A stretch of DNA of 64,000 nucleotides from Escherichia coli (GTDB lineage Bacteria > Pseudomonadota > Gammaproteobacteria > Enterobacterales > Enterobacteriaceae), in the NCBI RefSeq assembly GCF_001677475.2, contig NZ_CP015229.1. One strand, 5' to 3'. Of this stretch, positions 28,068 to 28,221 are shown in pieces. A program made the position numbers and the translations under genes. Each line of letters begins with the position of its first letter. Position 1 is the stretch's first letter. The notes below the pieces were generated by a model. The model was not told where the DNA came from. It did not search any database and worked only from the letters and a program-made list of their open reading frames with translations.

Positions 28068-28142
28068 TGGAGCGGGTAGCGGGAATCGAACCCGCATCAT
28101 CAGCTTGGAAGGCTGAGGTAATAGCCATTATACGATACCCGC
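28068..28142 (-). tRNA. tRNA-Gly (anticodon UCC), glyT-like, prophage-borne
   Basis: Cloverleaf with anticodon loop CUUCCAA, GTTCGATTCC T-arm, CCA end; differs from host glyT by compensatory acceptor-stem changes. Confidence 0.85.
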
Positions 28143-28145
28143 ATA

Positions 28146-28221
28146 TGGTGCCGACTACCGGAATCGAACTGGTGACCTACTGATTACAAGTCAGTTGCTC
28201 TGCCTGCTGAGCTAAGTCGAC
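28146..28221 (-). tRNA. tRNA-Thr (anticodon UGU), thrU-like, prophage-borne
   Basis: 76 nt, anticodon loop CUUGUAA, T-arm GGTCACCAGTTCGATTCCGG, CCA end. Confidence 0.85.

Follow-up and report, generated by a model that had tools for sequence, protein, structure and literature searches.

A host-like tRNA-Thr(UGU)/tRNA-Gly(UCC) gene pair in the Q-to-lysis interval of an Escherichia coli lambdoid prophage

Late-region tRNA genes and the Thr-Gly pair

The occurrence of tRNA genes between the antiterminator gene Q and the lysis genes of lambdoid phages is a long-known feature, to which little weight attaches on its own. Stx-converting lambdoid phages such as 933W and Sakai Sp5 carry, in the Q-to-lysis/toxin interval, an ileZ-argN-argO array affiliated with rare A-ending codons. 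An Asn(GUU)-Thr(UGU) pair is found in phage 21, as well as in Sf6, BTP1 and HK446; that of phage 21 is on the late strand between Q and an S21-type holin gene, with the two genes a few nucleotides apart and arranged in the order pR'-tR', tRNAs, S21. Outside this group, T-even phages encode both a tRNA-Thr and a tRNA-Gly (in T4 with anticodons that we take to be UGU and UCC), while the host possesses thrU and glyT within the operon thrU-tyrU-glyT-thrT (tufB), glyT being to our knowledge the only UCC gene in E. coli.

The window examined here, a 64,000-nucleotide stretch of E. coli DNA, contains a lambdoid prophage that has inserted next to serU (tRNA-Ser, 45265-45354); asnT and further genes of the host follow on the right. 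Two adjacent tRNA genes occupy the minus strand of the prophage: a tRNA-Thr(UGU) gene with a thrU-type body (anticodon tgt, 28146-28221) and a tRNA-Gly(UCC) gene with a glyT-type body (anticodon tcc, 28068-28142). Their order on the RNA strand is Thr, a UAU spacer of 3 nt (28143-28145) extending from the CCA end of Thr to G1 of Gly, and then Gly; both genes encode CCA. ARAGORN called both, at exactly the coordinates and with the anticodons proposed in the initial annotation, and both matched the Rfam tRNA model RF00005 (gathering score 29) with E values of ~1e-11, at 65.0 bits for Thr and 65.6 bits for Gly. A cloverleaf with a 7-nt anticodon loop was recognised in each, by the covariance and the heuristic tool alike. 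In the same model the host genes score 73.8 bits (thrU) and 64.9 bits (glyT), which places the prophage Gly allele marginally above its host counterpart. The suspicion of pseudo-tRNAs is thereby answered, as both genes pass as canonical tRNAs in two predictors, ARAGORN and Rfam, and the observation of two adjacent prophage tRNA genes is confirmed. No further tRNA-like remnants (tyrU, thrT or extra slots) were found with the Rfam tRNA model at E<=1 in positions 27650-28400.

Each of the described systems shares some, but not all, of the features of this locus. The pair of phage 21 agrees with it in strand, in position between Q and an S21-type holin, and in close spacing of the genes, but the partner is Asn rather than Gly, and tRNA-Thr21 is identical to the window Thr at 48 of 76 positions, with the anticodon stem GUCGC/GCGAA. 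The host operon shares the thr-then-gly order, and the window gene bodies are 96-97% identical to those of the host; however, the prophage pair lacks tyrU, thrT and tufB, has a 3-nt rather than a 209-nt spacer, and resides in a prophage. The T-even tRNA-Thr and tRNA-Gly are ~84% identical to the window pair, but belong to virulent myoviruses in which an 8-tRNA cluster shows another gene order and more diverged sequences. Homologues of the Ile2(CAU) and Arg(UCU) slots of the ileZ-argN-argO type are found upstream of Thr-Gly in sister prophages of the one in the window, whereas the window itself holds the Thr-Gly end of the array alone. The generalization that lambdoid phages typically carry Ile/Arg tRNAs is therefore incomplete, since phage 21 has Asn-Thr(UGU) in this position and the sister prophages have Ile2-Arg/Lys-Thr-Gly.

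The placement of the pair on the late strand between the Q region and the lysis genes, as originally described, holds. Upstream, the interval is bounded by the antiterminator Q gene (30495-30869, minus; PF06530, Pfam 172.7 bits) and downstream by a class II, S21-type holin gene (25399-25614, minus; PF04971, 112.6 bits). The minus-strand order is RusA, Q, a CPBP protease moron, a small ORF, a truncated methyltransferase and Thr-Gly, followed by a 180-aa hypothetical ORF, TerB/DUF3927, STnc100, the holin, lysozyme, Rz and terminase. The methyltransferase gene directly upstream of the tRNA pair (28336-28885, minus; N6/N4 DNA type, partial PF01555 match) is truncated/frameshifted. Several accessory elements were also recorded. 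Two are morons of the Q-to-lysis interval: the CPBP/Rce1-like intramembrane protease gene (29522-30346, minus, GC 39%) and, on the opposite strand, an IraM-like anti-adapter gene (25787-26122, plus, GC 36%). The sRNA STnc100 (26167-26342, minus, 93.7 bits), which a 2026 preprint relates to PasD sRNAs, lies between the DUF3927/TerB genes and the holin gene and has a terminator at its end. The prophage also has, among its early genes, a hokD/sok type I toxin-antitoxin locus (33299-33473 and 33149-33304, both minus; sok 112.8 bits) and, next to dicB, the DicF sRNA (40748-40799, plus, 77 bits).

The nearest public genome is that of E. coli GB089, which is 99.3% identical from 23.6 kb rightwards and has another head/tail module; the same two genes are annotated there as tRNA-Thr and tRNA-Gly, and the methyltransferase is a RefSeq pseudogene. 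The prophage is a mosaic in this comparison, with window positions 1-23600 (the head/tail module) 80-86% identical to GB089 or unmatched, and the lysis-to-integrase part 99.3% identical. Two genes that look unbroken in the window, for integrase (356-aa ORF) and portal (502-aa ORF), are frameshifted in GB089. In that genome a Q-tRNA-holin segment of ~7 kb, with the same Thr allele and methyltransferase pseudogene, occurs in two prophages, at 1.49 Mb (L132) and 2.47 Mb (L002/L130), which indicates exchange between co-resident prophages.

Divergence from the host genes and origin of the junction

The close resemblance to host thrU and glyT that was noticed at the outset is borne out by identities of 73 of 76 bases between the window Thr and K-12 thrU, and of 73 of 75 between the window Gly and K-12 glyT. 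The differences are of unequal kind, and the claim that both genes carry paired compensatory stem substitutions stands for one of them. In Gly, the changes C6U and G66A in gene numbering (the 6-67 pair) convert C6-G67 to U6-A67, the sole compensatory pair across both genes. In Thr the changes are C2U, U16C and U20C, none of them compensatory: U16C and U20C alter unpaired D-loop bases, whereas C2U turns C2-G71 into a U2.G71 wobble at the identity pair of threonyl-tRNA synthetase. The Rfam score of Thr declines along this series, from 73.8 bits for thrU to 69.8 for the C16/C20 allele and 65.0 for the window allele with its added U2. The anticodon arm, ACUGA-CUUGUAA-UCAGU, is that of host ThrU. 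Of the bacterial identity sets, G1-C72, C2-G71, G35 and U36 for Thr, and U73, G1-C72, C2-G71, G3-C70, C35 and C36 for Gly (PMC9976931), the Gly gene keeps every element and the Thr gene all but C2-G71, so that charging of the window Thr copy may be lowered by C2U.

The source of the variant alleles was sought first at the host locus, which is essentially invariant. The thrU-tyrU-glyT-thrT stretch is at least 99% identical in 5,422 records (5,420 complete E. coli genomes), and identity to K-12 is 100% in 10 of 11 evenly spaced full-length matches and 99.8% in the other. This rules out the variants as genes of the host locus, in agreement with the initial annotation. Their identity as native genes of other species was likewise rejected, since neither the Thr nor the Gly variant had a match in 100,044 species-representative genomes, scanned by exact matching only and without a positive control. 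An invariant host operon, coupled with the lack of a species-representative match, argues that the variant alleles are phage-borne. It follows also that they did not arise by conversion from host genes, and yet they are maintained.

Whether the pair represents a captured part of the host operon is a separate question, for which the junction provides the pertinent evidence. The host layout is thrU-CCA-T...(tyrU)...AT-glyT, and the prophage TAT equals the T that is the first base 3' of the thrU CCA joined to the AT that forms the last two bases 5' of glyT. The junction is therefore compatible with a deletion within the operon, although ~4 of 64 trinucleotides would fit equally well by chance, and beyond these 3 nt no homology to tyrU, thrT, tufB, the operon leader or its 3' flank was found beside the prophage pair. 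In the reading we prefer, the module descends from host-type thrU and glyT, possibly through loss of tyrU from the thrU-tyrU-glyT-thrT operon. If capture did happen, it is an old event, earlier than the dispersal of the module and common to at least 120 viral contigs, rather than specific to this prophage. Overall, the initial interpretation survives in part: the genes are canonical, co-oriented and host-like, while compensation does not extend to Thr, the statement on Ile/Arg tRNAs is incomplete, and a capture, if any, did not take place in this prophage.

Distribution, array architecture and flanking signals

A pattern search of IMG/VR (the 3' half of Thr, any 3-nt spacer and the 5' end of Gly) placed the Thr-TAT-Gly module on at least 120 viral contigs, and among the matches listed the spacer is TAT in 115 of 120 copies. 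In 5,420 E. coli genomes a query with the pair matched 6,578 places; subtracting a single host locus for each genome leaves ~1,150, a figure to be taken as an upper bound since incomplete arrays match too. The module is carried by several named phages, among them phi467, vB_EcoM-606R7, PhiR47_1, SerU-LTIIb and JLK-2012, and it is found also in prophages of E. coli E24377A and 504211. The pair is already known in kind, being annotated in RefSeq genomes such as GB089 and in named phages, and it must be regarded as ordinary because it is a common and previously annotated prophage module; no account of a thrU/glyT-type prophage module was found in the literature searched. It is a real and, from the features of its genes, probably functional member of the class of tRNA genes that characterizes lambdoid late regions.

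Among the 118 full-length copies in the matches listed, 76 Thr genes (64%) and 54 Gly genes are identical to those of K-12, the C16/C20 Thr allele and the U6-A67 Gly allele are each represented by 27 copies, and the single-step U6.G67 intermediate by 4. Within the same matches, host-type and variant alleles of Thr and Gly are joined in each of the four possible ways, in 55, 26, 18 and 14 copies; for genes ~80 nt apart, this points to recombination or gene conversion. Sequence diversity within the pair is also low. Over 16 loci with a downstream flank of the window type, segregating sites number 6 in the 154 positions of the tRNA pair and 79 in 330 positions of adjacent non-coding DNA (p = 6e-9), and pi is 0.015 and 0.060, respectively, a 4-fold difference. 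Such values fit purifying selection, homogenisation by conversion, or both.

These distributions bear on the view that the pair is a near-neutral passenger, a host-derived hitch-hiker in the hypervariable Q-to-lysis region that is kept intact by conversion from the host, and not by selection for a phage function, and would be entering decay in this lineage. The mixing of alleles would be expected of such a passenger, as would the predominance of copies identical to the host genes among the matches listed. The C2U change at an identity pair, confined among the copies compared to the window and GB089, and the pseudogene state of the adjoining methyltransferase have the appearance of incipient decay, and T-stem mismatches in another array slot of a sister prophage (slot B, described below) point the same way. 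On the other hand, the same 3-nt junction persists beside Q genes of different types and in many flanks that are unrelated to one another, the Gly substitution is a compensated one with U.G intermediates rare, the variant alleles are maintained although absent from the host loci and from the species-representative genomes scanned, and the diversity of the pair is reduced relative to the DNA beside it. We consider this explanation unlikely, if worth retaining.

The module is often the tail of a larger, variable array. In sister prophages Thr-Gly closes an array of four slots situated directly after an intact, 1050-nt homologue of the methyltransferase gene. Slot A encodes Ile2(CAU); slot B has an Arg(UCU) body, or that body in a Lys(UUU)-like form; the thrU body occupies slot C and Gly slot D. 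Two-slot arrays like that of the window, with a similar short leader, are common too, and the window prophage is without the Ile2 and Arg slots. Several of the slots display changes of anticodon. In one prophage lineage associated with several ETEC genomes and on 7 IMG/VR contigs, the thrU body of slot C has a UUU anticodon with A26G and is annotated as tRNA-Lys (1920-1995 both in L004, E. coli E1316, and in L006, TW10690); in phage SerU-LTIIb it has UCU with G24A and A31G, and is annotated as tRNA-Arg (L007, 5203-5278). Loci listed for anticodon-switched alleles of this kind in IMG/VR are L029, L109, L126 and L134-L137. Judged from their sequences, the UUU and UCU alleles show a Thr body on which the anticodon has been exchanged in nature. 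In slot B, a 77-nt body of the Arg(UCU) type has UUU in several prophages (L003, 3501-3577; L004 and L006, 1998-2074; L008, 3157-3233), and that of E24377A has a T-stem mismatch and is without a PGAP tRNA annotation. These features suggest anticodon drift and decay within arrays. The tRNA-Thr of JLK-2012 (L009, 3079-3154) is a chimera, with nt 1-26 of the phage 21 type and nt 27-76 of the thrU type; it has a 3-bp anticodon stem (CAG to CAU), receives no ARAGORN call and scores 49 bits with Rfam, and it is followed by the same Gly gene and then by tciA/tciB and STnc100.

The crossover inside the JLK-2012 Thr gene, and the differences among arrays by whole slots, could be read to mean that the main use of the tRNA genes is to provide homology for recombination, between phages or between phage and host, or sites at which other elements attach. 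Traits of this sort follow from sequence identity itself and are not evidence of a selected function, however, and in the window neither an att-like duplication nor an inserted element was found on either side of the pair. This is the least probable of the explanations we have weighed.

Signals that might govern expression were sought on either side of the pair. Its leader (28222-28350, minus) contains a weak sigma-70-like match, TTGGCA-16-CACAAT at 28350-28323, which is a candidate from a consensus scan, and its final ~25 nt (...GAGGAAsCAAT) are similar to the sequence that leads into other two-slot arrays. Further candidate promoters, again weak matches, lie just after Q (TTGCCA-17-GATAAT at 30400-30372, and TATAAT near 30455), and in phage 21 and JLK-2012 the arrays come directly after pR'-tR'. 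Four-slot arrays have a conserved TTGCAG-N17-TATTAT ~9 nt before slot A/Ile2 (~3655-3700 in L003; ~3311-3350 in L008), and this motif suggests that they have a promoter of their own. Downstream of tRNA-Gly is a structured trailer of 308 nt (27760-28067, minus), with a minimum free energy of -112.4 kcal/mol (z = -8.3 relative to shuffled sequences). It includes a long hairpin (27846-27958), a terminator-like hairpin (27974-27954) and a strong intrinsic terminator with a U-run (27787-27770), and is conserved in four sister loci (E24377A, E1316, TW10690 and SerU-LTIIb). It had no match among Rfam families, and from its predicted folding may be an undescribed prophage RNA element.

Proposed codon supply, tRNA-targeting defences and the allelic series

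We assign a probability of roughly one half to the reading that the two genes are working tRNA genes, forming the Thr-Gly end of an array, which supply two rare isoacceptors during phage gene expression. The pair would represent the terminal module of a modular tRNA array carried in the late, Q-to-lysis leader of many lambdoid prophages, with divergence from the host genes limited by purifying selection and, probably, by gene conversion. Transcription in the late-gene direction, either from its own promoter or through read-through by Q-modified polymerase, would yield a precursor that RNase P would cleave, with trimming back to the CCA ends, as for host tRNAs. The products would enlarge the pools of two low-abundance isoacceptors, each specified by a single host gene and reading ACA and GGA/GGG, respectively; in the accessory and early genes of the prophage these codons have about twice the frequency that they have in host genes. 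The integrity, homology, distribution and conservation of the genes and the codon counts are observed here, whereas expression, charging and any benefit of the pair are inferred.

Codon usage was compared between ORFs called in the window and 39 K-12 genes. The share of ACA among Thr codons is 21.3% in the window prophage and 13.0% in the K-12 set (OR 1.8), and that of GGA is 16.3% versus 8.6% (OR 2.1), the enrichment being strongest in early and moron genes. The late structural genes, which account for most of late translation and for which a check of these codons had been proposed, are barely enriched: GGA stands at 13.2% against 8.6%, and the rise of ACA, from 13.0% in host genes to 16.6%, is not significant, so that the comparison constitutes a weak test. 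ATA and AGA are far more enriched in the prophage (OR 6-7), and a non-prophage island at 45.4-64 kb shows the same codon values as the prophage. The enrichment is a general signature of AT-rich horizontally acquired DNA. Moreover, the Ile2 and Arg tRNAs are absent in spite of the stronger enrichment of ATA and AGA, which argues that the tRNA repertoire is not tuned to the codon demand of the prophage. Codon use is thus consistent with a supply role but not discriminating, and that role is best described as plausible. It may be added that the reading of ACA as threonine requires a UGU anticodon (PMC12445682), and this essential requirement makes thrU a natural bottleneck.

A bottleneck of this kind is also a target. 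P2-OLD causes infection by lambda to abort, mainly through cleavage of the host tRNA-ThrU(UGU) at a CNG/CNG pseudo-palindrome of the anticodon stem, and tRNA-Thr(UGU) genes encoded by phages, that of lambdoid phage 21 among them, resist it and rescue the cell (PMC12445682). A second system, HepS of Gifsy-1, responds to the lambda J protein; its strongest cleavage is of tRNA-Thr(GGU), while Thr(UGU), Thr(CGU), Ile(GAU) and Ser(GCU) are secondary targets (PMC13043305). By extension, the prophage genes might be anti-defence spares, with Thr(UGU) above all replacing a host tRNA cut by anti-phage nucleases so that late translation can be completed. The presence of a Thr(UGU) gene in the same genomic position in phage 21 lends itself to this explanation, as does the chimeric Thr of JLK-2012, in which a 3-bp anticodon stem and broken CAG stand ahead of the same Gly gene. 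The window allele itself is less accommodating. Thr21 is resistant by experiment, whereas the window Thr is of the thrU type and retains A37, a 5-bp stem and the CUG/CAG pseudo-palindrome of the host, which are reported as characteristic of P2-OLD substrates; tests with hybrid tRNAs and mutants map resistance to the anticodon arm, and the changes in the window gene (C16, C20 and U2) lie outside it; and additional host ThrU gave little to no protection (PMC12445682). The large proportion of module copies whose Thr gene equals host thrU also speaks against a role as spares, and no nuclease that targets tRNA-Gly(UCC) was found in the literature searched. Accordingly, although we see some prospect that spares of this kind account for the module, we judge it doubtful. 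Resistance of the window Thr allele to P2-OLD was considered as a separate proposition and rejected; its anticodon arm is that of the OLD-sensitive host ThrU, and by the reported determinants the allele is expected to be sensitive.

A more specialized version of the same thinking would have the thrU-derived slot evolve as a counter-defence cassette, wherein the C16/C20 bases of Thr and the U6-A67 pair of Gly confer resistance to some undescribed nuclease or toxin that reads the D-loop or acceptor stem. We hold this to be quite improbable. Were it true, the alleles (host-identical copies, the C16/C20 allele, the Thr21/thrU chimera and the rare UUU and UCU versions on a Thr body) would form a series that records an arms race with tRNA-targeting systems directed against lambdoid phages, such as P2-OLD and HepS.

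The locus is of modest value, mainly as context and through its many relatives. The module illustrates the concerted evolution of host and prophage tRNA genes. In addition, because ThrU has recently been shown to be what P2-OLD chiefly cuts and what HepS cuts secondarily, the alleles distributed among hundreds of prophages, some sensitive-looking and others resistant-looking, form a ready natural series of ThrU-like sequences in which the action of these two defence systems may be explored.
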